Source of the DNA: an uncultured Chlorobiaceae bacterium
GTDB lineage: Bacteria; Bacteroidota; Ignavibacteria; UBA10030; SZUA-254
Length of the DNA stretch: 64,000 nucleotides
NCBI GenBank assembly: GCA_964484465.1
Contig: CAZAFL010000007.1
Coordinates: 16,567-80,566, forward strand
Direction: 5' to 3'
This document shows, piece after piece, positions 27,410 to 59,813 of the stretch. The notes beneath the pieces were generated by a model, which was not told the origin of the DNA, ran no database searches, and worked only from the letters and a program-made list of their open reading frames with translations. The first letter of the stretch is position 1. Every line of letters begins with the position of its first letter. The position numbers were made by a program, and so were the translations under genes.

Positions 27410-27955
27410 CGTAGGAGTATCCTTATGAAAACAGAATTGTTGCATATCGGTGACTCTTTTCCAGCGCATTAGAGAGGAAAACAAACGATCTCTAATAGTC
27501 AAAAAGTTAATGCCAAAATTGTTCTAATGGTATGTGTTTATTTCCATAGCAGATAGACAATTCAGTGGTACTGTTAAGACATCTTAATACCCTTTTTCTC
27601 TTAAAGGTTTAGTAAGATTTAAAAGCACATAACTGGGCAATAGCAAAAGAACGGGGTATGAATAAGCTCTAAACGAGCGATGTGGCACCTTCTCCTCCTC
27701 TCTGTCCTCGGTCTAACTATTATCAATGTACAACTCATTATTACAATAATCAAGCAATATCGTTACTTCCGCGCGAAAAAATTTCTATTAGTTGCAGAAA
27801 TTTCTCCCTCGTAAAATTCTTTGTATAAAAGCCAGAAACAATTTACGTCTGGCAATTTTGGCTCTTAGGTTAAAAGGCATTACAGATCGGGGAAAAATCT
27901 GGGGATACAGTTTGAAGGTTTGACAGGAAGGCAAAGAATTTTAATTTGGCTTTTT

Positions 27956-28750
27956 CTATTGTATCCAATGATAACCTTCACGAGTTATGCTCATAATTCG
28001 TATAGGTGCTCCATTCCCTGTAGGGTCGATTTCAATTGCTTTTTGAAGTCCTACTTGAATGAATGCAACGGGATTAACAACACCCAAATTCTTGAGAATT
28101 CCAAGTGTAAGTTGGTCACTGACATCACTAATCCAGTCGGAATAAGTAGAATCGACGGCGTTGATAGACGGATATACAGATTTAACTACCACAAGTTCGG
28201 GGACAAAATACGGGGAGTGGTCAAGCGCAGAAGGAATATTTTTTGGTCGAAAATCATACAAAATAACAGTGGGTATGTCTTCATAAAAACCAAAAATGCC
28301 CACCGCTACCCGACGTGCAAACAAATTGGGAAAAAGTGTAGTGGTGAGCATGTTTTTCCACGCATCCTCAATTGGCTTTCTGATATTGATGCACAGCATT
28401 TCAGCTTGTTGGTAAATGTTACTGTTAAGAGCGAGAGAAGAATCTACAATCTTAAATATATCAAAGCCGGTCGGCGAATAGGAATATACTCCCGATACAG
28501 CATAACAAGTATTTCCGACCGCTCTAATTTTTTCAGTAGTAGTAGATTTAAGAAGGGAGATTCCGGCATAGTCATAAGAAACTTTACTATCAGCCCCGAC
28601 AACGATGCTATCTTTCGTTCTGACCAAAACAATGGTGGTTCCGTGAGTCCATTCTTGAGCCAGAGCAACAGTAGTATTCAAAAAGAATCCAAAGATGACA
28701 ATTTTAAAATAAATTACTATACAGTTTATTTTGACTCTCTTGCTTGGCAT
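27956..28750 (-). CDS. Exported proteasome-beta/HslV-like Ntn (Thr) hydrolase
   Basis: Signal-like segment ending VALA, then QEWTHG-TTIVLVRTKDSIVVGADSK...KIRAV...AVSG; start at ATG 28750 inferred (ORF track starts at 29017). Confidence 0.7.
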   Translation of the reverse strand: MPSKRVKINCIVIYFKIVIFGFFLNTTVALAQEWTHGTTIVLVRTKDSIVVGADSKVSYDYAGISLLKSTTTEKIRAVGNTCYAVSGVYSYSPTGFDIFKIVDSSLALNSNIYQQAEMLCINIRKPIEDAWKNMLTTTLFPNLFARRVAVGIFGFYEDIPTVILYDFRPKNIPSALDHSPYFVPELVVVKSVYPSINAVDSTYSDWISDVSDQLTLGILKNLGVVNPVAFIQVGLQKAIEIDPTGNGAPIRIMSITREGYHWIQ

Positions 28751-29043
28751 GGTGGAATGCAAAATAGAAGTCTTAAAGGACAATGGATGCAATCTGTTAA
28801 TGATATTGACTTGGATATTAGCGAAGATGAAGAACATTGGTTTCATCTTGTTGGGTTTTTGCCTTGTGTAAACAATTTGCCTTCGGTTCACTTCAAGAAT
28901 AACGGATAAAAATGAGGTAAATTCAAGCAAGAAAACATCGGATACCGCCATAGATATTCGATAAAGACATTTTAGAAATCCTTCTCGTTCGCTGCATTGA
29001 CAGCGAGGGTAAACCAAGAGTTTGCTCTATGGCACGGGAAGGA

Positions 29044-29282
29044 TTTTTTCATGCAATTATGACCAATCAAGAAATATATGAGCTATTGAGACAGCGTCCC
29101 AACATGGCAGGAGAAGATTTATTAAGGATGGCACTTACAAAATCGGGACCACGTCGTCGGCATAGGACCGCATTCTAAAAGTCGCGCGAACTGTTGCTGA
29201 TCTTGGAAATTCGCCAGGCAGTCACTCTGATAATATCAACGAAGCAATTCAGTACAAAAGCCTGGATGGCAATATTTGGTAG
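29044..29282 (+). pseudogene. comM: Decayed 3' fragment of comM/YifB Mg-chelatase-like ATPase
   Basis: Translates AGEDLLRMALTK then after a frameshift A*DRILKVARTVADL...EAIQYKSLD..W*, matching the ComM C-terminal AYDRILKVARTIADL...EAIQYRSLD. Confidence 0.8.
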
Positions 29283-29334
29283 GAACGAATCTCAAAACAA
29301 CTGATTTCATCTTAGTTCATTACTGGTTCATTTT

Positions 29335-32300
29335 CTAAAATCCGCTGTTTCTTAGAGCATCGGTCAGCATTAACGCCGACACATCCAAATTCGCTATTTC
29401 AGAATACACAATTCTCCCCTGACCGGGAAGAATGCCCGCCGGACCTACCGAGCCCCCAAAATTTTCAGAACTTATGTATTCAGTTTCGGTTATCAGAAGG
29501 CGGAAATTTTTCAAATCCGGCTCTTGGTCAAACACAACCGTACCAGACCAAAGCATCACATCCGGGGTGTTCACTGCGGGATTAACGGGAAGAGCATCCA
29601 CCCTTGCAACGCTCGCAGGAACGGAATTCCACGCAAGGTCACTCGTGACGTTGTGATCCTTTTGCTGAACTTCAACGGCAAAGACCGTAGGCGCAGACAA
29701 TGATGAATTCGTCGAGCCTAAGGGAAGTTGCGGTCCTCTCGGTGTTACTCCGCTCACTGTCACCTTAACGTTCCTCGGATGATGCGGGTCAACCGTGATT
29801 AGTGCCGTTCGTCCTTGCGGGAGTTGCGCAAAATCGGCAACGGCGACGCGCGAAATCATGGCATCTTCCAGGGCATGTGGCTGATACCGCACCAATGCCA
29901 GCCGGATAAACGGCATGTACGTTCGTGTTTGTGTTTCAATGGTAATGTCGGCAAACCATAAGCCGCGCGTTTCATCAAATTTGACCGGAAATCCCACCAC
30001 ATCAACGCGCCCGGGCATATTGGAACCAAAAGACGCTGAGGGTTCTTCGAGCGTCACTGAGAGATCGTGCGCAACCGCATCCGGGAAATTATATACTGAT
30101 GGAGTTCCGTACAGAAGATCTGTTTCCCAAATGGGATCCATTCCCCACTGTGTGATGAACGATTTGAACTTATCTCTCGTGGCAGAATCCAATACGGGGT
30201 TTTCAACGCTCCACAATGCGACGCCGAGGAGTTCCCCTTCGCCGGATGAGAACCACGGACGTTTCAGGTACACCCTCAAACCGCCGCCGAAACGAATGCT
30301 CCTTTTGACGTTCGAATCCGTTTGACGCTCCCAGCCGAACGTGGGAACGACATACACGATCTCCGGAGCCAACGGGCGCGCGGATGCGGGAATATCGACA
30401 ATGACGGGAAGGCCTGTTCTCGTAAAATCGGTATTCGGATCGGGTTCAAAATAATCCTGATAACGCGAGGTTGCAACCGCCGAATAACTGACGAGATGAT
30501 GTTTGGTGTCGTTCAACATATGACGGGGAGCGGCATGGGCGGTGAACTCAAACAGATTATTGCCATCACCAAGCAGGTCATTCTTGCGCGCAAAAATGAT
30601 CTGATCATGCTCAGTGTCGTAATATCCCGTTTGACGAATTTCGATACCGGGTGCATATAGGAAATCCTCATTGAGCGAAGGCAGGCGCAGCTCGTCAACC
30701 GTGCCCGAGTGATGACTTTCCGTTAATGCGATCAACGCGGGATCGTCGACAGGATCAGTCCACGCCGCAAGGAGGTCAACCTTAGCGGTGCTTGCCCCGT
30801 GGATTTTCAATGCACCCATAATGAGCGCATCGTTGGAATTGGGATAACGCCATGCTGTGAGAGGTGCGAGCTCGTTCGAATCGGTTCTTCCGCGGTCTCG
30901 TGCGCGTTGAAGCTTGTCCGGCACAATCTCGACGGCGCTGTGTTCAATATCGACGCCCGTGAATTCCGGCAGACCGAGAGGCTGTTGAACGGCATGAACG
31001 AGGTTCAATAACCTCGGTGGTGTCAGCATCCAATGCCCGCCCTCCATCGTCCGTTGAAGGATATGGGCGATCCGGTCGACATTGCTGCCGGGCTCCGGAA
31101 CTTCGGATTCAATGCCGCTCAAACTCATCTCCTGGATCTGTTCGCTCAACCATTTCCACATCCCCATCAGCGGCAAATCTTCCGGCTTAAGGTAACTGGA
31201 AAGCGGAACCACTTTTGACGTTCCCTTCGGTAAAAAGACGGTAAGAACGCGCTCGATTGCGTTCCAGTGCGGCTTCGGGTCTGTCTGACCCGGGGCAGGC
31301 TCAGCCAAAGCAAGTCTGAAGCCCGCTTCCTGCTGCCATCCGCTCTCGCCGCCGAAACTCACAGTCACTGCCGAGCCGGGACGCGGATTGGGATCGCTGA
31401 GTTTCTTATATGGCGCCGGACCGGTTCCGGAAGTCCTTCCGCCCATGCGGGCGAGCGTGCCGTTTTCCGTTCCGGGCAGATCGCGGAGCGCGGCTCCCCG
31501 GGAAAACAGATCAGGCAAATGTGGCAATGGATTAATCTGTGGTCCCGCATCAAGAGGATACTCTTCAGGGTCATGACCTGCGGTCGCGAATTTTTGTTTT
31601 TTGAATTCCCCCTCATCGCGCTGAGCAATGAGAGACCACATTGCTTTGCTCCCGTCGATTTTACCCGATGCGTCATCAAACATACCAAGCTGCTCTCCCA
31701 TCTCAATGCTTGATCGGGGTGGGACGATGTGCCGGTCGCCTGCGGTGGTGTCCGGCGCAAGACCGTCTTTTGAGATATCGTTATTGAACGTTCGGATCAC
31801 AAGGCGCTCCATTGCCGACCCCGCTCCCGTGATGGCTTTGGGATCGCGAATGATCACGTACGGCGCCCCAACCGGCTCAAAGCGCAGATACGGTATGCCG
31901 TCGCTATCGTTAGGAAGTGCAGCAGACGGAAATTCTTTTATAAGCTTTTTCGTAATCTCCTCGTCGAGGCCGATGCTGTTGCCCGATAAATCGACTGCGC
32001 GAAGGCGAAAGCGGTACCGCGCTCCGAAGCGCAGCCGCGGCAACGTTCCCGGCGGCAGGTTGAATGTCGTCGTAAGTTTGAACGGAGTGTCGGGCTGATT
32101 CTCCAGAAACTTCCCTTCCGGGTCGGAGTCGCCTTTCTTTTGTACGGCGTCCTTAGAATTTGGGTAACGCGACAAGTGCTTGCTCGGGCGGGGAACGCTT
32201 AAACTCCATCCCGCCCATCGGGTAATTGCCTCGTGCAAATAGAGGTCGTCCGTTGCCGGCTCCGAGTTTTTGGCAGGTTGTGTGAGCGCGAGCTGGATAA

Positions 32301-33756
32301 ACCCTTCTTCGGAATCGACATGAAACAATTGATCGCCGATCGTATAGTCGCCGGTGCGGAGATTGACCGAATGCCACTTGTCCGTGACCGAATCCCACAC
32401 GTCGAGCCGGTATCCGCGAGTAAGATCTTCAGCTTGAAAAACGGTGTCGCTTGCATTGTTGTTCACAATCGCATCGTTAAAACTCAATGACTGCGCCATA
32501 ATGTTGCGGACGTTTGCAAACCGGTTATCGAGATACAGGGAAAATCCCGCAGACCTGAGCGAAGCCAGTGTGGCTTCCGGATCGAACACTTCCGGGTTGT
32601 CGGCGGGGTTTACTTGAGCGTCGGGGGTAGCGTTGCGTTCCGCCATTGCATTCGTATCTAATGTTTCCGCCGTCATAATCATCTTGTGCATCGCCCCATC
32701 GACGTCAATCTGGGTGACGCCATAGGTGCGTGAATTCATGAGAAGCAGGCCCAATACATTGATGGGAAAATTTGCAAGGCTGAAGTTCCGCGGTTCGGTA
32801 AAGAAGGAGCGCCCCCCCATGTCGACCGCATGAATGTACGAGGTTTTGAATGCGGGCAGCACAGGTTGCATTGCCCAAGCTCGTTTTGCGTCGATGACGG
32901 AAAGCCTTCCCGGCACATTCTCCGCGGTTTCAGTCACGAAGTCACGCGGCAATTCGAGATCAAAGACCAACCCCAATGCCCGCAGCAGTTGTGGATACGA
33001 ATTCAACGAACTGAGCGCCTGATGAAAATCAAGGATGGTATCCTTGTCAAGATCTTCTTCGATAGGATGATCTTTCCGAGAAGGCGTCGGCATATGGTGA
33101 AATACTGAAAATGGCATGGTCATCTTTTCAAATCCCTCCTTTTCCGTGCCATCATTTATTGCTCCGTCGTCGTCTACCGATTGGGGAGGAAGAAATCCAA
33201 AAGAGCCATTGCCGATACTGCCCTCGGTGAAGCTTTTGACAATATCCCGCTTGCGAGGAGCTTCTTTTCCGTTCCAATGAACCGCAACGCCGTCCAGAAA
33301 TCCGGAAAGAGTGTTACGGTTAGATCCGCGCTGATCGCGACCGGACGGAAGAACGATCGCTTCGCTCGCTCGTTTATAAATGGATTTGACTGCACTGAGC
33401 ACCCGCCGGATCGGATAGGTGATTATTCCGCGGCCAGAATAATCGTCAAACGTGTGCGAGCGGACAAGTGTATCCTCCCTGAACAAGGCTTCCCATAACT
33501 CCGGCTGCAAAACGCTTCTATCAATCTTTACCGAGGTAGTTTTAAGGTTCCCGTTCGCTGCATCGTGCGATTGTATCTTGAGCAGCAACCCTTTATCCCG
33601 GAGCAGGCGCGTCCACCCCAACCAGTCAGGAAATTCACCAAGCTTTTTGCCGCCGGTCAGGCGTGGAGCCACGAAGACCGAAACAGGCATCGGATCGCTG
33701 TCAACGCTTATCCCACGCGCCATGATCGTGAAAACAATTGTATGTGCTGCTGGCAT
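29335..33756 (-). CDS. Large hypothetical protein, family B (about 1473 aa); paralog of 3075-6596
   Basis: AGGAG RBS before ATG 33756; shared motifs with 3075-6596. Confidence 0.85.
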   Translation of the reverse strand: MPAAHTIVFTIMARGISVDSDPMPVSVFVAPRLTGGKKLGEFPDWLGWTRLLRDKGLLLKIQSHDAANGNLKTTSVKIDRSVLQPELWEALFREDTLVRSHTFDDYSGRGIITYPIRRVLSAVKSIYKRASEAIVLPSGRDQRGSNRNTLSGFLDGVAVHWNGKEAPRKRDIVKSFTEGSIGNGSFGFLPPQSVDDDGAINDGTEKEGFEKMTMPFSVFHHMPTPSRKDHPIEEDLDKDTILDFHQALSSLNSYPQLLRALGLVFDLELPRDFVTETAENVPGRLSVIDAKRAWAMQPVLPAFKTSYIHAVDMGGRSFFTEPRNFSLANFPINVLGLLLMNSRTYGVTQIDVDGAMHKMIMTAETLDTNAMAERNATPDAQVNPADNPEVFDPEATLASLRSAGFSLYLDNRFANVRNIMAQSLSFNDAIVNNNASDTVFQAEDLTRGYRLDVWDSVTDKWHSVNLRTGDYTIGDQLFHVDSEEGFIQLALTQPAKNSEPATDDLYLHEAITRWAGWSLSVPRPSKHLSRYPNSKDAVQKKGDSDPEGKFLENQPDTPFKLTTTFNLPPGTLPRLRFGARYRFRLRAVDLSGNSIGLDEEITKKLIKEFPSAALPNDSDGIPYLRFEPVGAPYVIIRDPKAITGAGSAMERLVIRTFNNDISKDGLAPDTTAGDRHIVPPRSSIEMGEQLGMFDDASGKIDGSKAMWSLIAQRDEGEFKKQKFATAGHDPEEYPLDAGPQINPLPHLPDLFSRGAALRDLPGTENGTLARMGGRTSGTGPAPYKKLSDPNPRPGSAVTVSFGGESGWQQEAGFRLALAEPAPGQTDPKPHWNAIERVLTVFLPKGTSKVVPLSSYLKPEDLPLMGMWKWLSEQIQEMSLSGIESEVPEPGSNVDRIAHILQRTMEGGHWMLTPPRLLNLVHAVQQPLGLPEFTGVDIEHSAVEIVPDKLQRARDRGRTDSNELAPLTAWRYPNSNDALIMGALKIHGASTAKVDLLAAWTDPVDDPALIALTESHHSGTVDELRLPSLNEDFLYAPGIEIRQTGYYDTEHDQIIFARKNDLLGDGNNLFEFTAHAAPRHMLNDTKHHLVSYSAVATSRYQDYFEPDPNTDFTRTGLPVIVDIPASARPLAPEIVYVVPTFGWERQTDSNVKRSIRFGGGLRVYLKRPWFSSGEGELLGVALWSVENPVLDSATRDKFKSFITQWGMDPIWETDLLYGTPSVYNFPDAVAHDLSVTLEEPSASFGSNMPGRVDVVGFPVKFDETRGLWFADITIETQTRTYMPFIRLALVRYQPHALEDAMISRVAVADFAQLPQGRTALITVDPHHPRNVKVTVSGVTPRGPQLPLGSTNSSLSAPTVFAVEVQQKDHNVTSDLAWNSVPASVARVDALPVNPAVNTPDVMLWSGTVVFDQEPDLKNFRLLITETEYISSENFGGSVGPAGILPGQGRIVYSEIANLDVSALMLTDALRNSGF

Positions 33757-33770
33757 GATGTTATAGCTCC

Positions 33771-36700
33771 TTATGCGTACGCGTGTGCATAGAGTTCCCA
33801 CCGTTCGGGCTCGGGGAACAAATCTTGGAACGTCGGATCTCCGCTGCCGCCAAAACCGCGTTCAACCGTCAGCTCGACCGATTTGCTGAAACCCAAGACT
33901 TCAACATTAACGGTGAGCGTCGCGCGCCCGTAGACTTTATCCGGCGATTCATAGGTGAAACTCAGATTGAACTCGACCGAAACGGAGACAATCCCCAAGA
34001 CGCAAAGCGAGCCGCCCATACGGAGATAGCCTGTGAGAACCGCGGTGAGATTTCCCCCGCTCTCTTTCTTTTGCAGGCAAAAATAAATGCCGGCAAGGAT
34101 ATGGACTTCGCCGCTTGCCACACCGATATCGATTGCAGCGACGGCACCAAACTCGAGCGCAGCTTCCAATTTCTTCATACCGCCGGCATCCAATTGCATG
34201 GCGAAGAAACCGCCGCCGCCGAGCAAACTTACGGTCAGCAGGAACGGGTGTTGCCGTTCGCAGAAATTGAAATCAAACGTCGGAGAACCTTCCAAGAATG
34301 GAAGCAAGAGCGACGATTTCATGCTGACATCTTTCAATGCAAACACGCCCACTGCCAGGGGCGGCAGAGCAATACCGAACCCTGCCTTGACGCCTGGAGG
34401 ATCTTGAACAACGTCAACGGAAGCGCCCGAACCGAACAGACCGGGAGGGATCGCTTGCCGCAGGTCTTCAACAAAGTGTAGATCGTTGATAAATTCCAGC
34501 GGAGGAGCGCCTAATTTCACTCCTACGCTCGGCTTGCTGCCGGATCCGGAACTGAAAGTGAATTCATCGATGTGCAATAGAACACAATCAGCCAAGCTGA
34601 CATCGACCCCGACCAACTTTCCGTTTATTTGCGTCTCCGGTGGCTGGAGAGCCTGGCCCAGTGAAGCGACCGGTTTTCTTATGACCGAATGAATCGTTAA
34701 GTTGTCTTTATTTTTTACGGTTAGCGTTGCAACGCCTGAATGCACCTTATTCATGAGGGAGGGATTCCAATCAAGCGATGTAACAATCTCTTTTCCTATG
34801 CCGCTTGCGGCATCGCGGGTCTCTGTCTGCATTTTCGCGGCATTTTTCCCTATAGGTGCGGAATCTAACAAATCGCCTAATTTGAATACTCCGAATAGTG
34901 TTCCCGTACCATCAAACATACTATTGCCATCGCCCGTAAAACCACCGGCAACATCGTCCGCATCTATCGAAACAGGACCTAAACTTCTGGTCAATGAAGA
35001 GATTGCCATGTTGGGAGTGGATATCCCTCCCCCTTTTTCTGCTGAGAACGTAACTGGAAGTTTGACAGGAATTCTGGCGAATACACCCTCATTTCCATCA
35101 AATCCGTTTGACACGTAATCCCCATAGAATTCAATTGTTGTCGCCGCATCGCTTCCAATCAGCTCCTGCACTTGCGGAATGCGCACCCTGGCATTACGAA
35201 GCGTAGGATGTGAATCCCATGAATCGTCAATCAGCATTGCATCCGTGACAAGCCGTGTGTTATCGGTCGGATTCGCAAGGTCGCGTTCCGCAAAAGTTAT
35301 TCTTTGCCCTAAGCAATCTATGGATTTATCGCCGATCTTCGACGCAGAATTAAACTCATTAAATGCGCTTTTAGCTGCATTAGAAACTGAACTAAGGTCT
35401 CCAAGATCAGTATCATCAACGAACATCATTGGAAGAGATAAATCCTTTCGCTCCCCTCCTTGATCGACTCCGGTGCAATGAAACCTGAACGGCATCCTGC
35501 TTCCACTGCCGTTATCAACTTCCAACCAAAAAGAATCCTTAGTACCTGAAATAATATCCGGTTGGGCAAGATCGGGCGTTATGAGCGTGGAAAGACGCAT
35601 GCTCGTAAACGGATTAGCGCGGAAAACCCCGCCGTCATCGGCAGTAAACGTTCTCTCCGGAACACGCACAATCACAAACACCCTCTGCATCATGTACGCG
35701 CCAATGATACCGCTCGGAGCCGTCATGAATTTCCGCTCTGTTATCTTAATCTTTGCAGCGGGGAATTTCCCCGGAAGCAGTACTCCTTCATGAACTATGC
35801 GGACATAATGATCGCGTCCCTGGCTTGCCTGATGCACCCATTGTGAAAGTGACAGTTTCTCGGAATCTTGGCCCTCTCCTTCGCCAGGACCGATGACACG
35901 GCCCGCAAAAGCAGTTGTGCTCGAACCGGTTAAGACGGTCCTTCGTAAAAGGCGGGACTCCATATCTCCCGCCGGTCTCGGTCCTGCGTCGTTAGGGTCG
36001 TAAAATCTCCAAGGAGGAATCCAGTCGCCGTGAGAATTGAGCCATCCGCCCAACGAGGAAAGCATCAATTGTTGAGCGTAAAATGGCTGCGGAACATAAA
36101 AGGGAGACGAGGGTGGCGTAACCGCAAGACCCGGTATCGCCGGAGATGGTTTGGTAAATAAAAAAAACTTCGACGGCTTTTTTACGACAGGTTTTTGATT
36201 AAACAATCCATGAAAGCCCGATGTTAAAAAGACAATTTCTGCTCTGTCGTCCTTTGTCATTGCCATGATGCCGAGATGTTCATCGGGTCCGGCGGATGGC
36301 AGATCCGCGAATCCCGGGAAATCCGGCGACCAGATTGCGCGCAATGACGCGGGATTTTGGATGCTAAGGTCTGTTGATTGATTGCCCGTGTTCAAGCAGA
36401 GCCGCGTATGCCAAAGCTCGGTACGGCCGCCGACAGTGAACGGCGCCGTACGGTGCTGCCAGACGATTTCGCGGGTGGGCGAGATGATCAGGCGATAAGG
36501 AAGCTCGATGGCAGTCTCATTCGGACTCGGCTCGGCGATATTCGGCGCATTTGCAATTTCATCAGGCGATGGATTCGGCCCGATCGCCGCGGTCGGGTTG
36601 ACGTTGGGAGTGAGTTTTGACCAGTCAAGAATTCCCTGACTCGAGTACGGAATCGTCACGCCGGAAGGAACCTTAAACGCAAGCCGGCTCGAGTTGCCGA

Positions 36701-36968
36701 TCTTGGCGGTAGCCTGACGTGGCAGACCAGAAACCGGATGAGGGTCTATGATGCCAGGTTCATCAAGCTTTGTGGCGGAAGACTCAAAGTATGCGGTCTC
36801 CGCAATCGTTTGCGGTGGGAAGGTCACAATGACAAACGCATCTTTCGAAGCGTCATTAATTGTCAAGATTGGATTCGACGGGTCGTCCGAATCTATCCGA
36901 AGATTGATAAATTCGAACGATAGGTGCAAAAGGTCATCTGGTCGGATTAAGTCTATCTTATGGAGCAC
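33771..36968 (-). CDS. Large hypothetical protein, family A (1065 aa); paralog of 48-3059
   Basis: GTG start with AAGGGA; RPDDLL, TAIELPYRLIISP, ELWHT, GGGFF, GVASG, AGIY. Confidence 0.85.
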   Translation of the reverse strand: MLHKIDLIRPDDLLHLSFEFINLRIDSDDPSNPILTINDASKDAFVIVTFPPQTIAETAYFESSATKLDEPGIIDPHPVSGLPRQATAKIGNSSRLAFKVPSGVTIPYSSQGILDWSKLTPNVNPTAAIGPNPSPDEIANAPNIAEPSPNETAIELPYRLIISPTREIVWQHRTAPFTVGGRTELWHTRLCLNTGNQSTDLSIQNPASLRAIWSPDFPGFADLPSAGPDEHLGIMAMTKDDRAEIVFLTSGFHGLFNQKPVVKKPSKFFLFTKPSPAIPGLAVTPPSSPFYVPQPFYAQQLMLSSLGGWLNSHGDWIPPWRFYDPNDAGPRPAGDMESRLLRRTVLTGSSTTAFAGRVIGPGEGEGQDSEKLSLSQWVHQASQGRDHYVRIVHEGVLLPGKFPAAKIKITERKFMTAPSGIIGAYMMQRVFVIVRVPERTFTADDGGVFRANPFTSMRLSTLITPDLAQPDIISGTKDSFWLEVDNGSGSRMPFRFHCTGVDQGGERKDLSLPMMFVDDTDLGDLSSVSNAAKSAFNEFNSASKIGDKSIDCLGQRITFAERDLANPTDNTRLVTDAMLIDDSWDSHPTLRNARVRIPQVQELIGSDAATTIEFYGDYVSNGFDGNEGVFARIPVKLPVTFSAEKGGGISTPNMAISSLTRSLGPVSIDADDVAGGFTGDGNSMFDGTGTLFGVFKLGDLLDSAPIGKNAAKMQTETRDAASGIGKEIVTSLDWNPSLMNKVHSGVATLTVKNKDNLTIHSVIRKPVASLGQALQPPETQINGKLVGVDVSLADCVLLHIDEFTFSSGSGSKPSVGVKLGAPPLEFINDLHFVEDLRQAIPPGLFGSGASVDVVQDPPGVKAGFGIALPPLAVGVFALKDVSMKSSLLLPFLEGSPTFDFNFCERQHPFLLTVSLLGGGGFFAMQLDAGGMKKLEAALEFGAVAAIDIGVASGEVHILAGIYFCLQKKESGGNLTAVLTGYLRMGGSLCVLGIVSVSVEFNLSFTYESPDKVYGRATLTVNVEVLGFSKSVELTVERGFGGSGDPTFQDLFPEPERWELYAHAYA

Positions 36969-45904: not shown

Positions 45905-47593
45905 ATGTCATATCTTAGTCTGTCTGTGCGAGAAGCCATCAATCTTGTTAACGCCCCCGTCAATGGGTGGTTCCTGCCATCCATCCAGCGACCCTATGTT
46001 TGGGGAAGTCGGTATGAAAGTGAGCTATACATCTGCAAGTTATTCGACTCTTTGTTGCGGGGTTATCCCATCGGCGGACTGATCGTCTGGAACACAAAAG
46101 AGGAAGTTCCGTTCAGAGAATTCATGCATGACTACCACAATGCTTCCATCCCAACACAGGTCGACAAGGGTCAGTGGAAGAGGCCGGACAAGTGGCTTGT
46201 GTACGACGGACAACAACGTTTACAGACTTTGTTTTCGTGCCTCCGGTACACTTTCAATGGAAAGGTGCTCATCTTCGATCTGCTTTTTGACCTGGACAAA
46301 GAGGACCGGGAGATGGATGAAACAGGTTTTTCTTTCGTCGGTAAGAACGATTCGACTGAAGCCCATCTTGTTCGACTCAATTCCCTATTCACGCAAAAGC
46401 CCGACCAAGACCCTGAGTTCGAGGAGCAGATATTGGCTAGCCTTGGTTCACTTTCCAAGGAGCAAACGACTCTAGTTAAGAAGAACCTCAAACGTCTGTG
46501 GAAGGTGTTTGTGGAAACGGACAAGAAATCACTCGCCTATTTCCCCATCGAAAACAAGAGAGAGGAAGAAGTTAATGAAGTCTTCCAAAGATTAAATACC
46601 GGCGGTGTTCCTCTCTCGCTTGCCGACTTGGTTTTATCACGCATCAAGGAGGACTTCTTTGACTTCGAGGAAAACCTGCAAATGTTTTCCAGAGACATTT
46701 ACAGCCACACCACCAACGGATACACTTTCTCTCACTACGAAATTCTTCAACTTATTTATCTCATCCACAAAGGAACTATGAGAATCGACCCAAAACAAGT
46801 CAATTCTACGAAGGACACAAAGGCGATGAATGACATCTGGCTGAAGCTCAAACCGTCTCTGGATAGCTTCTTCGTAGACTTCATTTGGGGACAATTCAAA
46901 ATCAACAATTCTTCCATCGTTCCCCGCCAGAGAGCCCTTCTTCCTCTTATCGTGTATTTCTTTGAGCTGTACAACAATGGTGTCTCGTTCAAAAAGCTGA
47001 AGCCTGAAGCGTTACTCTTGCTGAACCAATATTTCATTCTCTCCCAAGTCAACGATTGGAGCCTACAATCGCTCATCGACAATTTCAGCAAGACCATACT
47101 GGACAAATCAAAGAAGTCCGATGGCTACTTCGATTTCCCACTCAACGATTTCATCGCCTCGCTCTACAAGACAAAGAAGCGAGAAACACAGTTGCTTGAA
47201 GCTCGCTTTACTGAATACACGTGGTTTTCACTGAAGGTTCTCACGCCCCAAAGGGTTTACCAATTCGATCCAGATTCATCGGGAAGATTCAGTCCGGAGA
47301 TTGACCACATTTTTCCTATGAAGCTCGAAGATCAAACCGATGAGTACTATGAATCGGTGGACATTATCTGGAACATGCAACCTGTAAAAGGCGACATAAA
47401 TAACTACAAGCGGCGAAAGCATCCGCTTGAATTCTTCACCGGAGATGGGCACAAGTTCTTGAAGGACTATGATTTTCTCCCGACTCATGACTTATCCGTC
47501 GAAGTCTGGAACCAACCAATTCCGTTCATCAAGGTGCGGCGCGTCAAGATGATGAAATTCCTGAAAGATGAATATGGCTTGGTTCTCAAATAG
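45905..47593 (+). CDS. GmrSD-type (DUF262 + DUF1524/HNH) modification-dependent restriction protein
   Basis: LPSIQRPYVW, DGQQRLQTL, FQRLNTGGVPLS, EIDHIFP...N. Confidence 0.85.
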   Translation: MSYLSLSVREAINLVNAPVNGWFLPSIQRPYVWGSRYESELYICKLFDSLLRGYPIGGLIVWNTKEEVPFREFMHDYHNASIPTQVDKGQWKRPDKWLVYDGQQRLQTLFSCLRYTFNGKVLIFDLLFDLDKEDREMDETGFSFVGKNDSTEAHLVRLNSLFTQKPDQDPEFEEQILASLGSLSKEQTTLVKKNLKRLWKVFVETDKKSLAYFPIENKREEEVNEVFQRLNTGGVPLSLADLVLSRIKEDFFDFEENLQMFSRDIYSHTTNGYTFSHYEILQLIYLIHKGTMRIDPKQVNSTKDTKAMNDIWLKLKPSLDSFFVDFIWGQFKINNSSIVPRQRALLPLIVYFFELYNNGVSFKKLKPEALLLLNQYFILSQVNDWSLQSLIDNFSKTILDKSKKSDGYFDFPLNDFIASLYKTKKRETQLLEARFTEYTWFSLKVLTPQRVYQFDPDSSGRFSPEIDHIFPMKLEDQTDEYYESVDIIWNMQPVKGDINNYKRRKHPLEFFTGDGHKFLKDYDFLPTHDLSVEVWNQPIPFIKVRRVKMMKFLKDEYGLVLK

Positions 47594-52982: not shown

Positions 52983-54266
52983 TCAATTGTTATGCTCCTG
53001 AAGTATGGTAAACAGTTTATCCTTTGTTTCTTTCACAGAACGTTCCAAATGCGCAGTTTCTCTTAAATGAAAAAACAACGTGTCGGAAAGAGTAAGAAAG
53101 TGGATGGACATGAACAACAATACTTTGCCGACCATCGCGACAGTAACGAGAACAATCTTGATACCTTCATTCCAGTTATGTAACATGCCAATGCCTTCAC
53201 CTTGCGGTAAAATCAGGGTGAACGAACCCTGGATTCCAAAATATAAGAACAGAGCAACCACTATAGATCGAGGGAGAGAGAAAAATTTGCTCGTGGACGT
53301 GCTCACGAAAAATGCCATTGCGACAGTAGCCAGAACCCCTGCCATCATGCTAAATACAATGGAAATGATCTGACTTTCCTCAGAATGAGATTTTGACGAC
53401 CATTGGAGAATTATTTCAAGAGAAAATATCATAAGAAAGATCACTACCGGTACTTGCCAATTCATTTTTCTTTCCCTAATCACCACCTCTTTCTCCCTGA
53501 AACCACTCGAAGGAAGAAAGCCCGGAAGTGGGTCGCTCTCTTGTTTCTGCACTGTATCGACTGTTCTATCTGTGAGTATTAAAAAACATATGTAAAGGTA
53601 TACACTATCAAGGTTGTTCAGAAGGTCAAGTATTGGATTTACCCAAAATTCTTTAAGCTGAAGGTATTCAAAAATGGAAAAAGAGAAATATAGCAAGCTC
53701 CACAAAATCCAAACCACTTGCCAAAACTCCCAGAACTGCTTGGTAGCAATTGATGCTCTTTGGTCTTCCGGTAAAGAGAGAGGCTGGAGGCCAAATCGTA
53801 TCACGAAGAGAACAAAGGTTGCTGCAATCCCCTGAATTCCAAAGGAAAGCACCTTAAAAGGTGGAAAGTTAGGATTGACTGTAAGGACCAACGCCATCAT
53901 GAGGATCGAACCCAATGTAAGACCATAGATTATGAATCCAGCGGGATAACGCAAGGCCGATGAGACCCATTCCCCGAAGGTATTCTCTCTATTTGGCCTG
54001 GGGAGAAAAATGGCCCTCTGGACAAGTAATGAGAGTCGTTTTGTCAATGTGACCGCCGGGAAATGAGGTCTACGCGTATGTTGTGATTCTATTTGAAACC
54101 AGGCGGAATCAAACTCTCGCACCGAATGGATGAGTTTCGTGCAATCTTTGCATTGCGCAAGATGGTTGTCCATAGCAAGGTTATCATCATCCGATAATAA
54201 CCCATCAACATACTTGCACGCATTTTCGAATGTAACATGCAGGTCTTTTTCGAATTCCCTGGTCAT
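52983..54266 (-). CDS. Zinc-finger (HxxxCxxC) anti-sigma factor fused to a polytopic membrane domain
   Basis: N-terminal HLAQCKDC; about 7-8 hydrophobic segments; overlaps the sigma gene stop (ATGA). Confidence 0.8.
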   Translation of the reverse strand: MTREFEKDLHVTFENACKYVDGLLSDDDNLAMDNHLAQCKDCTKLIHSVREFDSAWFQIESQHTRRPHFPAVTLTKRLSLLVQRAIFLPRPNRENTFGEWVSSALRYPAGFIIYGLTLGSILMMALVLTVNPNFPPFKVLSFGIQGIAATFVLFVIRFGLQPLSLPEDQRASIATKQFWEFWQVVWILWSLLYFSFSIFEYLQLKEFWVNPILDLLNNLDSVYLYICFLILTDRTVDTVQKQESDPLPGFLPSSGFREKEVVIRERKMNWQVPVVIFLMIFSLEIILQWSSKSHSEESQIISIVFSMMAGVLATVAMAFFVSTSTSKFFSLPRSIVVALFLYFGIQGSFTLILPQGEGIGMLHNWNEGIKIVLVTVAMVGKVLLFMSIHFLTLSDTLFFHLRETAHLERSVKETKDKLFTILQEHNN

Positions 54267-55222
54267 TTCATAACCAACCCTCTCATGACAAATTTTTGCT
54301 TTGTATCTTCAAGCACCGAGTGAGACCAATGACTTATTATGCTTGCTTCATCTTCAATGTTGTTTCCTCTTTCCCCGTAATACATTGCGAGGAAAGTAGT
54401 TCCTACCACTAGTTCGAGATATTCCGCCAGCCTCTTTTGGTTAACTCTGTCCTTTTCCTTTATGGTCTGGTTTAGTTTTTTTTCCATCTTTTTTCGGAGA
54501 GCTACGAATTCATTTGTAAGATCGCATGTAGCATAAGATTTCTCAATATCAGCGGCCAGCAACATAAGTTTGGTAGCAGATTTCTTCAACGCGATGTCGG
54601 CCGGCTTCCATCCCAACAAGCGATTATAGAAAAAAACCAGGAAGCACCAGGGGTAACAAACCTCAACTGCAATTGCAATAATCCGCTGAATCCTAGCGTC
54701 TGGCTCCAAGTCTTTATTCCGGGGAGTATCATCAAGCGATCCGCCCGCTTCATCCCCCTCTTTCGAATGGAACCGCTTCTTGAAAAAATTAATAGCCGTA
54801 TTCCTTATTACTATGAATAACCAAGTGGAAAACCTCGCTTCCGGAATAAATCTTGGTGCAGCGAGTTCAACTTTAATCCAAACTTCCTGACCAATGTCAT
54901 TGCAATCGTCTTTGTTTGCCCAGTCGATATATCGAACCTGATGACTAATAATCCGCTCAACATATCTTCTGTAAAGCTCATAAAGATAAGCTGTCGATCC
55001 TTGACGATACAATTCAAGTTGAACAGTTATATGATCATAGAGTAATATTTTCAAATGACTGAGTGCATTTTCTGAAACCTCAAAAGAATGTTTGAGATAA
55101 TCTGATTTTGTTGCCTGTAAGATCGCTTCACGTTTCTCTGTCGGTACAAAAGCAAAACTCATGAGGTGCCCAGTGAGCGCCTGCACATATTTCGTCCAGA
55201 TATCCTCTGTGGGTTCTTTCAT
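54263..55222 (-). CDS. Atypical ECF sigma factor with N- and C-terminal extensions
   Basis: DIGQEVWIKV...RFSTWLFIVIRNTAINFFKK region 2; degenerate region 4 LLGWKPADIA. Confidence 0.75.
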   Translation of the reverse strand: MKEPTEDIWTKYVQALTGHLMSFAFVPTEKREAILQATKSDYLKHSFEVSENALSHLKILLYDHITVQLELYRQGSTAYLYELYRRYVERIISHQVRYIDWANKDDCNDIGQEVWIKVELAAPRFIPEARFSTWLFIVIRNTAINFFKKRFHSKEGDEAGGSLDDTPRNKDLEPDARIQRIIAIAVEVCYPWCFLVFFYNRLLGWKPADIALKKSATKLMLLAADIEKSYATCDLTNEFVALRKKMEKKLNQTIKEKDRVNQKRLAEYLELVVGTTFLAMYYGERGNNIEDEASIISHWSHSVLEDTKQKFVMRGLVMK

Positions 55223-58460: not shown

Positions 58461-59813
58461 TTAGAGGTCAAGCCATACCGTATCGCCTGCTCCGAGATAC
58501 GCTTCGCACTTGGAACATGATAGATTGGGTTTTACTGACCAATTTTCCAGCGTTCCGGTCATCCCGTCGAATTTTTTGATGACTAGAGGATAGTCCCCAG
58601 GGCGATAACCAACAAGCAGTTGCATAACCTCATTCATTGCAGCACTTGCGAGTAAGCCATTGAAACTAACAACCTGTGCTTGTTTATCAGTTCCCTGAAA
58701 GTAACTGCGTGGTTTACCGCCTGTTTCTACACTAAGTTTGCGACCTGATAAGAAACCCATACACCACATACACAATTGGCCGGGGACCAAAGTAAGCACA
58801 TTCCCTCCAATACTCGCAGAGTCATGCCCATTCGGAGTGATAAGTAATCCAATGTCCACATAGGGAATACAATAGCGGAGACAAATTTCCTGGATGTCTG
58901 ATCGGGTTGTTAAACTATCAACGCACCCTACTACGATGTCTGCCCGTTTAAGCCGGTCAATTGCTTCCTTAGAAGGAACTTTGTATGGAACCGGTGTGAA
59001 TGTAATGGTTCGGTTAATCCGACTAACAAGGTTTGCCATAACTTTGGTTTTCTTGTGCTTCATCCGCACATTGAACCTCGAAAGTCCAACCATACGATGA
59101 CGGTTCTCTTCTTCTGAGACATCATCATCGATTCCAATAATTTCGCCGATACCCAAGTGAGCCGCCTGCTGCACCACATGGCTTCCTCCGCCGCTCAGGC
59201 CGACAACCGCTATCTTCGCACCTTGCAATCGCCGTTGCCCCCTATTCCCAATTAGCAACGCCTGCCGATGGTACATGCGATCGACAGGATTGTGTGTTGA
59301 TGTGATGCTATCGTCATCCCAATCGACCATAGTATTTCGCAACCAGCGCATGCGAGAAATTTCTCTGAAGTGGGCTGTCTCAGGCATAAGGATGAGACCG
59401 GATGCATGCTCCTCCCCTATGACAATTGAACCGTGTGGCCGCCACGGGACCAAGTTTTGATATGTAGGTAAAAGAGTCTTTGCGCTCTGGAGGTCGTCTT
59501 TAGAAAGACCAACCTTACCCTTGTGCCCGTGCGCGTGAAAAATGATGATACCAAGCTTCTTTTCTATCGCTTCATTGATGATGTGGATTGTCGCAGAACC
59601 ACGCCACATTGCGCCATGATGAGTTGTTTCAACGTATTGCTCTTCATGCAGTGTGAAGAGCTTCTTTATCAAGAGAAGGCTCTTGTCAGTTGTTTCTGCG
59701 CTACTGATGAGGGCGAAGACAACATGCTCATACCTGCCAGGACGAAAAACCTCCTCTTTCAGTTTCTTCCCCAAACGATCAGGAATTCGAACTTCAATTG
59801 GTTTTTGTATCAT
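58461..59813 (-). CDS. JAB/MPN peptidase - ThiF/E1 fusion (BubCD-like)
   Basis: FHAHG...SKDD JAB motif; GLSGGGS, DDD, RHR, GCVDS adenylation motifs; CMWC and CSKC zinc ligands. Confidence 0.85.
   Translation of the reverse strand: MIQKPIEVRIPDRLGKKLKEEVFRPGRYEHVVFALISSAETTDKSLLLIKKLFTLHEEQYVETTHHGAMWRGSATIHIINEAIEKKLGIIIFHAHGHKGKVGLSKDDLQSAKTLLPTYQNLVPWRPHGSIVIGEEHASGLILMPETAHFREISRMRWLRNTMVDWDDDSITSTHNPVDRMYHRQALLIGNRGQRRLQGAKIAVVGLSGGGSHVVQQAAHLGIGEIIGIDDDVSEEENRHRMVGLSRFNVRMKHKKTKVMANLVSRINRTITFTPVPYKVPSKEAIDRLKRADIVVGCVDSLTTRSDIQEICLRYCIPYVDIGLLITPNGHDSASIGGNVLTLVPGQLCMWCMGFLSGRKLSVETGGKPRSYFQGTDKQAQVVSFNGLLASAAMNEVMQLLVGYRPGDYPLVIKKFDGMTGTLENWSVKPNLSCSKCEAYLGAGDTVWLDL

Follow-up and report, generated by a model that had tools for sequence, protein, structure and literature searches.

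A gene on the minus strand of the analysed DNA (a stretch of 64,000 nucleotides, here called the window) probably specifies the precursor form of a protein that is exported and belongs to the proteasome-like superfamily (Ntn, MEROPS T1-type); its cleavage, autoprocessing and activity are inferred. The translated precursor is laid out as MPSKRVKINCIVIYFKIVIFGFFLNTTVALA, followed by QEWTHG and then TTIVLVRTKDSIVVGADSK. An earlier note on this DNA had described a hydrophobic leader ending in VALA, the hexapeptide QEWTHG, and a following sequence that begins with TTIVLVRTKDSIVVGADSK and goes on to KIRAV and AVSG. All of these elements were present in the translated frame, the last two within EKIRAVGN and YAVSG. 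The features on which the argument rests are collected in Table 1.

Table 1. Positions of the features discussed, numbered along the window.
Feature	Position	Strand	Basis or conservation
Precursor ORF, predicted exported proteasome-like Ntn hydrolase	27956..28750	-	264 aa + stop; PF00227, AF2, Foldseek
Predicted Sec / signal peptidase I signal peptide, M1-A31	28658..28750	-	Sequence, AF2 helix, homologue leaders, following Gln
Propeptide QEWTHG (Q32-G37), six residues	28640..28657	-	Motif conserved in clade; cleavage inferred
Mature catalytic domain T38-Q264, 227 aa, alpha-beta-beta-alpha sandwich (predicted)	27959..28639	-	AF2 pLDDT, Foldseek
Thr38, catalytic Thr1, N-terminal nucleophile (by homology)	28637..28639	-	T in 138 and S in 9 of the 147 sequences with a residue there
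Asp54, Asp17 equivalent, GADSK motif	28589..28591	-	D in 144, E in 3
Lys74, Lys33 equivalent, EKIR motif	28529..28531	-	K in 150/150
Gly87, Gly47 equivalent, oxyanion hole	28490..28492	-	G in 139/151
Codon-aligned antisense ORF, 329 aa from TTG start	27920..28909	+	Spans whole protease gene
Conserved C-terminal motif of antisense ORF, NDIDLDISEDEEHWFHLVGFLPCVNNLP, Asp-box-like	28799..28882	+	Outside protease coding sequence

Predicted fold, family and catalytic residues

The earlier note had called the protein a proteasome-beta-like Thr protease, and a proteasome-type Ntn fold was predicted with high confidence by AF2, by Foldseek and by comparison of the family profile with the PDB. The Pfam model PF00227 (Proteasome) gave 24.5 bits (E 2.4e-5), above its gathering cut-off of 22.4, but matched residues 36-85 only; the same model was matched at E<=0.01 by 18 of 58 relatives. 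In the AF2 model the mean pLDDT was 85.6, and values exceeded 90 in most 10-residue blocks of the domain. Foldseek comparison with the PDB returned 20S beta subunits as all of its top matches (probability 1.00, E 5e-8 to 1e-6), and 20S subunits accounted for 50 of the 50 matches listed, again at probability 1.00. Structural similarity to solved proteasome subunits is remote by the same comparison, with 12-17% identity and a TM-score of about 0.4-0.6; normalised to the target, the TM-score against beta subunits was 0.55-0.62. The family profile matched only proteasome beta/alpha subunits, BPH and HslV among the 60 PDB matches listed. Near the C-terminus, ...AIEIDPTGNGAPIRIMSITREG aligns with ...AIKRDNASGGCIRMASITREG of the proteasome beta type-1 subunit (PDB 8adn_N).

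The family is rare. Word-index searches for homologues gave 2 and then 10 proteins, and the family became visible only by an exhaustive profile search, which recovered 145 cluster representatives at E<1e-3, 22 of them at E<1e-10. Conservation of the catalytic residues, as given in Table 1, was counted over 151 aligned family sequences. Specific to the family are insertions after ADSK and before the last helices. The window's close clade comprises 11 members; it was not found in GTDB species-representative genomes or in IMG/VR, and a single locus was found in metagenomes. As to evidence of expression, the sequence was found only in DNA runs from a rock metagenome, where it showed no variants. 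At two other loci (L006 and L048) the family members are phage-borne.

No conserved operon partner was found in the window or at about 20 other loci, and the neighbours differed at every locus examined. An adjacent unfoldase or Mpa/ARC/PAN-type ATPase was likewise lacking at the loci examined, as was an alpha subunit or second proteasome-like gene in the window or beside any homologue examined. Searches with PHROGs and PADLOC gave no matches, and Rfam gave nothing in the window. That the enzyme is independent of an ATPase is inferred from its predicted location together with the absence of a conserved neighbour.

Leader, predicted export and activation

By inspection, the leader is arranged in n-h-c order and contains an AxA motif; it consists of the n-region MPSKRVK, a hydrophobic core, and a c-region TVALA that is followed by Gln. 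AF2 placed a helix over the hydrophobic segment, and a strongly hydrophobic 10-mer was present in 127 of the 140 family leaders of at least 10 aa. The Gln at the predicted +1 position, six residues before Thr1, is invariant in all 11 close-clade members, and the window's two other Sec-type signal peptides also precede Gln (GYA/QTF and GFT/QPT). A Gln at +1 is the Q-rule of Bacteroidetes signal peptidase I (PMC5837995, PMC10653852). The placement of Gln fits this rule, and the leader would, as judged by inspection, qualify as a substrate of Sec and signal peptidase I. The window also encodes a protein with a T9SS C-terminal domain, which fits the literature on the Q-rule. The T9SS sorting domain (Por_Secre_tail) is absent from the protease, which has no Pfam match beyond PF00227 and ends in ...ITREGYHWIQ; the protein is therefore predicted to be periplasmic rather than surface-secreted. 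The gene probably comes from a diderm of Bacteroidota type, and the periplasm is therefore also the most likely location.

Relatives of the window protein bear on the same question. A Cys before Lys33 covaries with a C-terminal Cys (both present in 113, neither in 21, discordant in 6), a CPGxxC pair occurs in several relatives, and several end in a transmembrane segment with an Arg/Lys-rich tail. The covarying cysteines and CPGxxC suggest disulfides in these relatives, and the cysteine pair and presumptive C-terminal membrane anchors speak for a site outside the cytoplasm. The pair is missing, however, from the window's own clade, which has EKIR and ends in HWIQ. Counting against the signal peptide reading, the h-region includes a Lys (IYFKIVIFGFFL). 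A leaderless minority also exists in the family (e.g. MFHG/TT and MRYG/TT), so that either export is not universal or those gene calls are truncated. The earlier note had inferred an exported proteasome-like enzyme, and the n-h-c/AxA leader, the +1 Gln, and the cysteine pair and C-terminal anchors of the relatives support it, with export itself an inference.

Translation might instead begin at the in-frame TTG at L24 of the 264-aa form (MNTTVALAQEWTHG/TT), past the hydrophobic core; the product would then be cytoplasmic, resemble HslV or BPH, and carry a short propeptide. A few family members do have short, non-hydrophobic leaders. However, nearly all homologues begin with Met and basic residues followed by an in-frame hydrophobic leader, this leader is kept also at loci where the DNA there is under no other constraint, and the cysteine pair and C-terminal anchors of relatives indicate an extracytoplasmic site. 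We consider the TTG start very unlikely, and the objection raised in the earlier note, that the true start could lie downstream of the hydrophobic segment, did not hold.

The hydrophobic segment could also be an uncleaved signal anchor (N-in, C-out), such that the domain would stay tethered to the inner membrane until autolysis between Gly37 and Thr38; the enzyme would still be extracytoplasmic, with signal peptidase uninvolved. Consistent with an anchor, the n-region is long and highly basic, the hydrophobic stretch of about 23 residues contains a Lys and was modelled by AF2 as a single continuous helix (residues 43-61 of a 296-aa form, considered below), and Gly-Thr autoprocessing alone would free the domain. 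However, AxA with a following Gln does not vary within the clade and agrees with the other signal peptidase substrates of the window. Moreover, AxA adjoins Thr1 without a Gly at -1 in many relatives, an arrangement that is sensible only if signal peptidase cleaves there. An anchor is in our view improbable, and a cleaved signal peptide is the preferred reading.

With a cleaved signal peptide, the N-terminal M1-A31 would direct export of the precursor by Sec, as inferred from sequence and family evidence, and signal peptidase I would cut after VALA to leave Gln32 as the new N-terminus in keeping with the Q-rule. By homology with proteasome beta subunits, Thr38 would then attack the Gly37-Thr38 bond intramolecularly and thereby remove QEWTHG. 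The free Thr1, with Asp17, Lys33 and the oxyanion hole at Gly47, would form an amide-bond hydrolase centre, most likely that of a peptidase, in an enzyme without an ATPase partner; this activity is likewise an inference. The pattern Q-x-x-x-[HYD]-G-T is kept in 11 of 11 close-clade members, and Gly stands at -1 in 93 of the 151 family sequences. Among the members fetched as DNA, many Acidobacteriota/Nitrospirota loci read ...AAA/TT, ...ARA/TT or ...ANA/TT. In many relatives there is no propeptide and AxA lies directly against Thr1, and in these export itself would unmask the nucleophile. Activation would thereby be placed beyond the cytoplasm, which would play a part similar to that of compartmentalisation in cytoplasmic proteasomes.

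An exported, Ntn-active enzyme need not be a general peptidase. It could be a specific transpeptidase/ligase (cf. connectase) or a non-protein amidohydrolase, with cell-wall peptide, lipopeptide or acyl-homoserine-lactone-type compounds as candidate amides, and it would then probably be a monomer or dimer and not a ring. Small amides are the substrates of other exported Ntn hydrolases, among them penicillin acylase, PvdQ and GGT. The present family is remote from the ring-forming members and carries its own insertions at the two sites named above. Fuchs et al. (2021, PMC8665760) noted that the insertions of many divergent homologues do not allow stacked rings to form and that connectase acts as a monomeric ligase. 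However, the catalytic constellation is the same as that of the peptidase members, and we regard a non-peptidase activity as possible but doubtful, the peptidase remaining the preferred assignment.

The opposite strand and the position of the start codon

The open frame opposite the protease gene may represent a long antisense overlapping gene. Its ORF ends 159 nt upstream of the protease start. None of the 19 Leu and 21 Ser codons of the protease gene is TTA, CTA or TCA (P = 1.7e-4 under the codon usage of the window), and the antisense frame is open across the whole protease gene in seven divergent loci (the window, L001, L003, L004, L006, L040 and L048). It is not open in 35 of the 37 loci that lack the C-terminal motif. 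This motif is clear in the window and five divergent loci and degenerate in one phage contig. In the six loci it is conserved with a protein-coding pattern of substitution: differences by codon position were 0.34, 0.135 and 0.53, and the third position is the most variable in the antisense frame only. Of 169 differing codon pairs in the motif, 78 (46%) are synonymous in the antisense frame, compared with 11 (6.5%) in the protease-strand frame. In the antisense frame Ser is written as either AGC or TCT and Leu as either CTT or TTG, and a protease-strand stop lies inside the motif block in L006 and within the motif in L007.

These observations bear on the start of the protease. The public gene call for this ORF (P0001) is longer than the 264-aa ORF, with 331 aa from an ATG at 28951, and the true protein might be this form, or one of 296 aa from the 'MKP' ATG at 28846, with a cytoplasmic extension (MKPMFFIFANIQ...) before an internal transmembrane segment. 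The conserved extension motif MKPxxxhhANIxV occurs in 19 family gene calls, in 17 of the 19 at the very N-terminus, and the extension can be aligned between the window protein and P0002. Alignment of the extension among homologues at first favoured the 296/331-aa N-terminus; comparison of the DNA of six loci led to its rejection. Against the longer form stand the codon pattern and the stops just described, and also a protease-strand stop just upstream of the start ATG in L004, despite DNA that is conserved across four aligned loci. In addition, the AF2 pLDDT is below 50 over extension residues 1-25, bar a few isolated positions, and the signal peptide is the direct start in many homologues. 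We thus give the longer form scarcely any credence. To judge from the codon comparison, the 331-aa database gene call is wrong, its N-terminal extension being the shadow of a conserved peptide on the opposite strand. Since the extra N-terminal part is not protease coding, the start at 28750 was retained.

The putative antisense product, of about 330-460 aa, would have an N-terminal hydrophobic helix and a C-terminal DIDVSxDxxxWxHLxGxxCVNNL resembling an Asp-box. The antisense ORF had no Pfam match and no database homologue, and single-sequence AF2 gave a pLDDT of 34, with the N-terminal helix alone confident, so that the model is uninformative. Synonymous-site constraint in the overlap was not evident, 4-fold-site identity being not clearly above controls except in one close pair (0.54 vs about 0.35). 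Inversion of the segment was considered and rejected, there being no convincing flanking inverted repeats. A further candidate, the motif as an element elsewhere in phage contigs, was also rejected; its degenerate DNA pattern gave two unrelated IMG/VR matches, about the chance expectation.

Only tentatively, and with less confidence than the assignment of the protease itself, do we propose a joint reading in two parts. The first is that the protein belongs to an exported branch of the proteasome superfamily that has not been described before (although it may coincide with one of the groups of Fuchs et al., for instance a PMI or PHD group), in which signal peptidase I makes the Thr1 N-terminus in many members, such that export is activation. 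The second is that at some of the loci this DNA also codes for another product, in codon register, on the opposite strand. Overlapping genes of such kind are discarded by standard annotation (PMC7457138, PMC8850804). Conservation across several phyla would make the antisense frame, should it be translated, an unusually clear case on which to test long overlapping genes. If the joint reading is true, few of the antisense overlapping gene pairs known from prokaryotes would equal this one in length and in breadth of conservation.

Comparison with known proteasome relatives and exported Ntn hydrolases

To our knowledge, all characterised proteasome relatives (20S core, HslV, Anbu, BPH, connectase) are cytoplasmic. 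Their N-terminal Thr is held in check by self-compartmentalisation, propeptides or ATPase gating. An exported branch, with a fold that is apparently disulfide-stabilised, would show a new control of the Thr-Ntn active site, in which signal peptidase unmasks the nucleophile in many members, and it would take the proteasome fold into the cell envelope, a compartment without available ATP. It is also a possible source for biotechnology of small, ATP-independent, secretable Thr hydrolases or ligases, as with connectase.

With the 20S beta subunit (PsmB/PrcB; PF00227, MEROPS T1) the window protein shares the alpha-beta-beta-alpha Ntn fold, the Thr1/Asp17/Lys33/Gly47 set and a propeptide before Gly-1/Thr1; it passes the Pfam model, and the C-terminal D-x-x-x-G regions align. 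However, it differs in its predicted Sec signal peptide and extracytoplasmic location, in having no nearby alpha-subunit gene or Mpa/ARC/PAN-type ATPase, in a structural identity of only 12-17%, and in a propeptide of 6 residues that is absent in many relatives. HslV (ClpQ) provided the best single-sequence PDB match (1g3i, E 0.002) and is similarly a bacterial single-gene catalytic subunit with a TTIV...GxDxxxS-type N-terminus. The scores with the NCBIfam HslV equivalog models, however, were 18.2 bits (cut-off 137) and 13.7 bits (cut-off 157.75), and the window protein has a leader and no hslU or AAA+ neighbour, whereas HslV is cytoplasmic. HslV is ATP-dependent through HslU. According to Fuchs et al. 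(PMC8665760), propeptides are confined to beta subunits and HslV.

Anbu and BPH resemble the window protein as stand-alone bacterial homologues without a dedicated unfoldase. BPH was matched at E 1.3 with the single sequence and at E 1.6e-4 with the profile (5ovs), over about 55 residues. The window protein differs in its 37-residue leader and in lacking an Anbu-type operon; Anbu and BPH are described as cytoplasmic self-compartmentalising complexes (PMC5666114, PMC5777263). Fuchs, Alva and Lupas (2021, PMC8665760) described 22 divergent proteasome-like groups, under the names DPH, RPC, PPH, CPH, AAH, WPH, PHI, ACC, PMI-1..6, PHD, FC1-5, DAH and GPH. Like the present family, these are remote and sparse prokaryotic or phage homologues, some of them phage-borne, that keep the catalytic residues and have lineage-specific insertions; signal peptides, secretion, membranes and disulfides are, however, never mentioned there (PMC8665760).

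Penicillin G acylase, PvdQ and gamma-glutamyltranspeptidase belong to other Ntn families, form two chains (alpha/beta) after an internal cut, and were absent from the sequence and structure matches listed. These exported hydrolases carry a Sec signal peptide and then undergo periplasmic autoproteolysis that exposes an N-terminal Ser, Thr or Cys, which is the same logic as that inferred for the window protein.

Proteasome likeness of the protease family

Translation of the minus strand at 27956-28750 gave a 264-residue product, MPSKRVKINCIVIYFKIVIFGFFLNTTVALA-QEWTHG-TTIVLVRTKDSIVVGADSKVS...TEKIRAVGNTCYAVSG...IDPTGNGAPIRIMSITREGYHWIQ (stop), in agreement with the leader, QEWTHG propeptide and catalytic region that an earlier note had read there. 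The proteasome-beta-like identity proposed in the same note was borne out by Pfam, by AlphaFold2 and Foldseek, and by conservation of the catalytic residues. The Pfam model PF00227 (Proteasome) matched residues 36-85 at 24.5 bits (E 2.4e-5), above its cut-off of 22.4; the NCBIfam HslV and archaeal beta models matched weakly, far under their cut-offs. A single-sequence search of PDB sequences matched HslV (E 0.002) and also 8adn_N, a proteasome beta type-1 subunit, the latter aligning at two places, around the N-terminal Thr and over the C-terminal stretch ...AIxxD....G..IR..SITREG. With the family profile as query, only beta/alpha subunits, BPH and HslV were among the 60 PDB matches listed (E 1e-7 to 3e-3). 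The AlphaFold2 model, built from a 58-sequence family alignment (mean pLDDT 85.6, pTM 0.78; in the catalytic domain, pLDDT above 90 for most 10-residue blocks), has a strand and helix order that agrees with the proteasome-type sandwich. When its fold was compared with the PDB by Foldseek, the 50 matches listed were solely 20S subunits (probability 1.00, E 5e-8 to 1e-6, target-normalised TM-score 0.55-0.62, identity 12-17%). The best viral match was an uncharacterised Gordonia phage protein.

A word-index search returned a single protein besides the window's own, a relative at 31% identity. An exhaustive HMMER search covering 1.84 billion cluster representatives gave a family of 145 at E<1e-3, of which 22 passed E<1e-10 and 10 also E<1e-30. 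When 151 sequences were aligned to the family HMM, the Thr1 column (proteasome-type numbering) held 138 T and 9 S, the Asp17 column 144 D and 3 E, and the Gly47 column 139 G, while Lys33 was K in 150/150. Fuchs et al. 2021 (PMC8665760) define the proteasome-like family by these four positions, which in the window protein are T38, D54, G87 and K74, respectively. Given its sequence, predicted structure and residue conservation, the window protein is proteasome-like. The members retrieved as DNA belong to MAGs of Acidobacteriota (Pyrinomonadaceae, Blastocatellia, Terriglobia), Nitrospirota and Dissulfurispiraceae, to unbinned metagenome contigs and, in one case, to a phage contig of IMG/VR; the window's own clade had no member among 185,579 GTDB species representatives. 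The IMG/VR viral contig carrying a family member is L048 (1-12705). Another family locus, L006 (1-13092), has phage-like surroundings too, with DUF5131, an N6/N4 methylase and numerous small genes; at L005 (3358-13280), again in a phage-like setting, the family gene adjoins a GH46 enzyme and a series of large genes, maybe tail proteins.

Leader sequences and export signatures

Signal peptides were called by inspection, without a dedicated predictor. A strongly hydrophobic 10-mer lies just ahead of Thr1 in 127 of the 140 leaders of at least 10 residues, and textbook-like signal peptides open many family sequences, for example MKRNIIFVLFIISFISQPIYSQISFHG before TT and MRTLIGIVVFLSLGSSVALA before TS; the leaders of about a dozen members are short and not hydrophobic. 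In the window's clade, all 11 sequences fit the pattern [small]-Q-x-x-x-[H/Y/D]-G-T, and Gln as the first residue past a signal peptidase I cut is known as the 'Q-rule' of Bacteroidetes (PMC5837995, PMC10653852). Since the window's two other Sec-type signal peptides also end before Gln (...TFGYA/QTF, from a protein that has a T9SS C-terminal domain, and ...VTGFT/QPT), the organism appears to follow the Q-rule, and the protease appears to be an ordinary signal peptidase I substrate. Many Acidobacteriota and Nitrospirota loci have an AxA site that abuts the nucleophile (...GQAAA/TTIV, ...NAARA/TTIV, ...GVANA/TTIV); at -1 the 151-sequence alignment has Gly in 93, Gln in 21, Ala in 20 and Ser in 5. 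Because the nucleophile follows AxA without a Gly at -1, this arrangement implies that signal peptidase would itself generate the catalytic N-terminus.

Two cysteines covary across the wider family, one immediately ahead of Lys33 (CKIR) and one in the C-terminal WIQKKxxC motif, with 113 sequences having both, 21 neither and 6 discordant, and several members also have a CPGxxC pair. This is the pattern that would be expected for disulfides, which form outside the cytoplasm; the cysteine pair is missing from the window clade. At the C-terminus of several members a transmembrane helix and then an Arg/Lys-rich tail are added, forming an anchor that would place the catalytic domain outside the cell. 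In the family proteins P0042, P0045, P0085, P0137 and P0150, a Pro/Thr-rich linker, the helix and the tail all come after the conserved WIQKKPxC motif, which suggests membrane-tethered versions of the exported enzyme.

Export of the protease, with a signal peptide, had been inferred beforehand, and it is supported by five agreeing lines of sequence evidence (leaders, Gln at +1, AxA at Thr1, cysteines and C-terminal anchors), from which export itself is inferred. The window protein has neither a T9SS sorting domain nor a lipobox Cys, so the periplasm is favoured as our best guess for its location. The data establish the predicted fold, the conservation of the catalytic residues, the leader architecture and the family-wide export signatures; the pathway is our inference. 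The Sec system would export the precursor, signal peptidase I would cut at A31/Q32, the remaining stub would possibly form pyroglutamate, intramolecular cleavage would occur at G37/T38, and Thr1, Lys33 and Asp17 would hydrolyse amide bonds.

Start codon and antisense reading frame

The maximal protease-strand ORF extends upstream as far as a TTG at 29017, and the public gene call (P0001) starts at ATG 28951 and has 331 aa. An apparent N-terminal extension, MKPxxxhhANIxV, about 30 residues ahead of the hydrophobic segment, is found in 19 family gene calls and in the alignment of P0001 with its relative P0002. DNA comparison of the loci ruled it out as protease sequence: conservation runs on upstream of the supposed extension ATG, a relative's locus (L004) has a protease-strand stop just upstream of its start ATG inside DNA conserved across four aligned loci, and in two others (L006, L007) the protease-strand frame has a stop within the motif. 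Extension residues 1-25 had AlphaFold2 pLDDT below 50, save a few isolated positions. The motif mirrors a peptide that the opposite strand encodes. Since the conserved extension DNA encodes this opposite-strand peptide, the protease start is placed, as judged from the aligned loci, at ATG 28750, and P0001 (by window 28751-28951, minus strand) and the 19 family calls are over-extended at the N-terminus. Past the hydrophobic core, the sole candidate start is a TTG at codon 24, and conservation of the leader across the family speaks against it; the same conservation upholds the hydrophobic segment as part of the protease ORF.

The conserved opposite-strand peptide, ...D-I-D-[IVT]-S-x-D-x(3,4)-W-x-H-[LF]-x-x-x(1,3)-C-[VL]-[ND]-x-[LF], is in codon register with the protease. 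Across 18 aligned codons from six loci, differences at the three antisense codon positions were 0.34, 0.135 and 0.53; differing codon pairs were synonymous in 78/169 cases in the antisense frame, including switches from Ser AGC to TCT and Leu CTT to TTG, and in 11/169 in the protease-strand frame. The peptide forms the C-terminus of a plus-strand ORF that spans the entire protease gene. An open antisense frame demands that TTA, CTA and TCA codons be absent from the protease gene, and none occurs among its 19 Leu and 21 Ser codons (P = 1.7e-4, based on 19% of Leu and 20% of Ser codons being of this type in the window's other genes). All motif-bearing loci have a full-span open antisense frame and protease genes without these codons; antisense stops occur in 35 of the 37 loci without the motif, the two exceptions being at 59-63% G+C. 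A hydrophobic helix opens all these antisense ORFs and is the sole confident element in the one model made of the window ORF.

The antisense ORF had no Pfam match and no database homologue, its single-sequence model was poor, and synonymous sites in the overlap were not clearly constrained, all of which counts against a folded second protein. A short divergent gene of 48-85 aa on the antisense strand, with its window ATG at 28757, 6 nt from the protease ATG, could be proposed instead, but it would leave the open frame across the protease unexplained. Long antisense overlapping genes are documented, if rare (PMC7457138, PMC8850804), and the ORF spanning the protease gene may be one of them; that it is translated we consider possible, yet doubtful.

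Gene neighbourhood and relation to known systems

The window sequence comes from a rock metagenome and is present in DNA runs only. Around the protease gene (window 27500-29500) G+C is 38-40% against 45-56% in both flanks, and the locus looks compositionally foreign. Upstream, at about 29020-29290 (+), lies a frameshifted remnant in two frames, ...DRILKVARTVADLGNSPGSHSDNINEAIQYKSLD..., which we take to resemble the C-terminus of a ComM/YifB-type Mg-chelatase-like protein. Genomic islands are known to integrate in ComM genes, so the protease gene may lie beside the site of an old insertion or rearrangement. A 38-nt stretch that begins with the last base of the antisense stop codon (28909-28946, +) is unique within the window; it recurs, with 4 mismatches, on a different contig in three of the same rock-metagenome runs and may be a small repeated element or terminator.

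On its downstream side the protease is followed by a PD40 beta-propeller protein and a T9SS cargo of 1637 aa. Giant proteins form two paralogous two-gene modules (26% identity; E 1e-79 and 2e-76) that face each other around the protease region; no Pfam match was found in the three members scanned, no PHROG or PADLOC match for the downstream pair, and no family match for the two giant ORFs upstream of the protease. Most large window ORFs scanned likewise lacked a family match. The region of the GmrSD-type, E1-like and sigma genes resembles a variable or defence island.

No neighbour is common to the family loci, at which toxin-antitoxin-like, ImmA/IrrE-like, ribosomal protein L21, phage-like small, GH46, M43 peptidase, LpxD, MgsA and other genes were found. 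Nor was an AAA+ unfoldase consistently adjacent in the loci compared, which fits a stand-alone, ATP-independent enzyme; the ATPase independence suggested in the earlier note is compatible with this and remains inferred.

Coordinates of features in the window and of antisense ORFs at loci of family relatives (L numbers; locus coordinates)
Feature	Coordinates	Strand	Size or remark
Antisense ORF, window	27920-28909	+	329 codons
Antisense ORF, L001	319-1380	-	360 codons open
Antisense ORF, L003	2318-3562	-	415 codons open
Antisense ORF, L004	2672-3805	-	378 codons open
Antisense ORF, L006	7022-8398	-	459 codons open
Antisense ORF, L040	1093-2145	-	351 codons open
Antisense ORF, L048 (phage contig, degenerate motif)	5734-6828	-	365 codons open
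Giant module 1	48-3059 and 3075-6596	+	1003 + 1173 aa
Giant module 2	33771-36968 and 29335-33801	-	1065 + 1488 aa
GmrSD-type restriction endonuclease	45905-47593	+	
ECF sigma / zf-HC2 anti-sigma pair	52983-55222	-	
ThiF/E1-like protein	58461-59813	-	matches PADLOC E1-E2 models

A survey that added 22 new groups limits propeptides to beta subunits and HslV and makes no mention of signal peptides, membranes or secretion (PMC8665760). Full-text searches turned up no report of an exported proteasome homologue, and the family may overlap one of those 22 groups. The window protein belongs to the proteasome-like superfamily and would work in the manner of a proteasome beta, HslV or BPH catalytic subunit. 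By the criteria specific to each, it is neither HslV, nor a true 20S beta subunit, nor Anbu or BPH.
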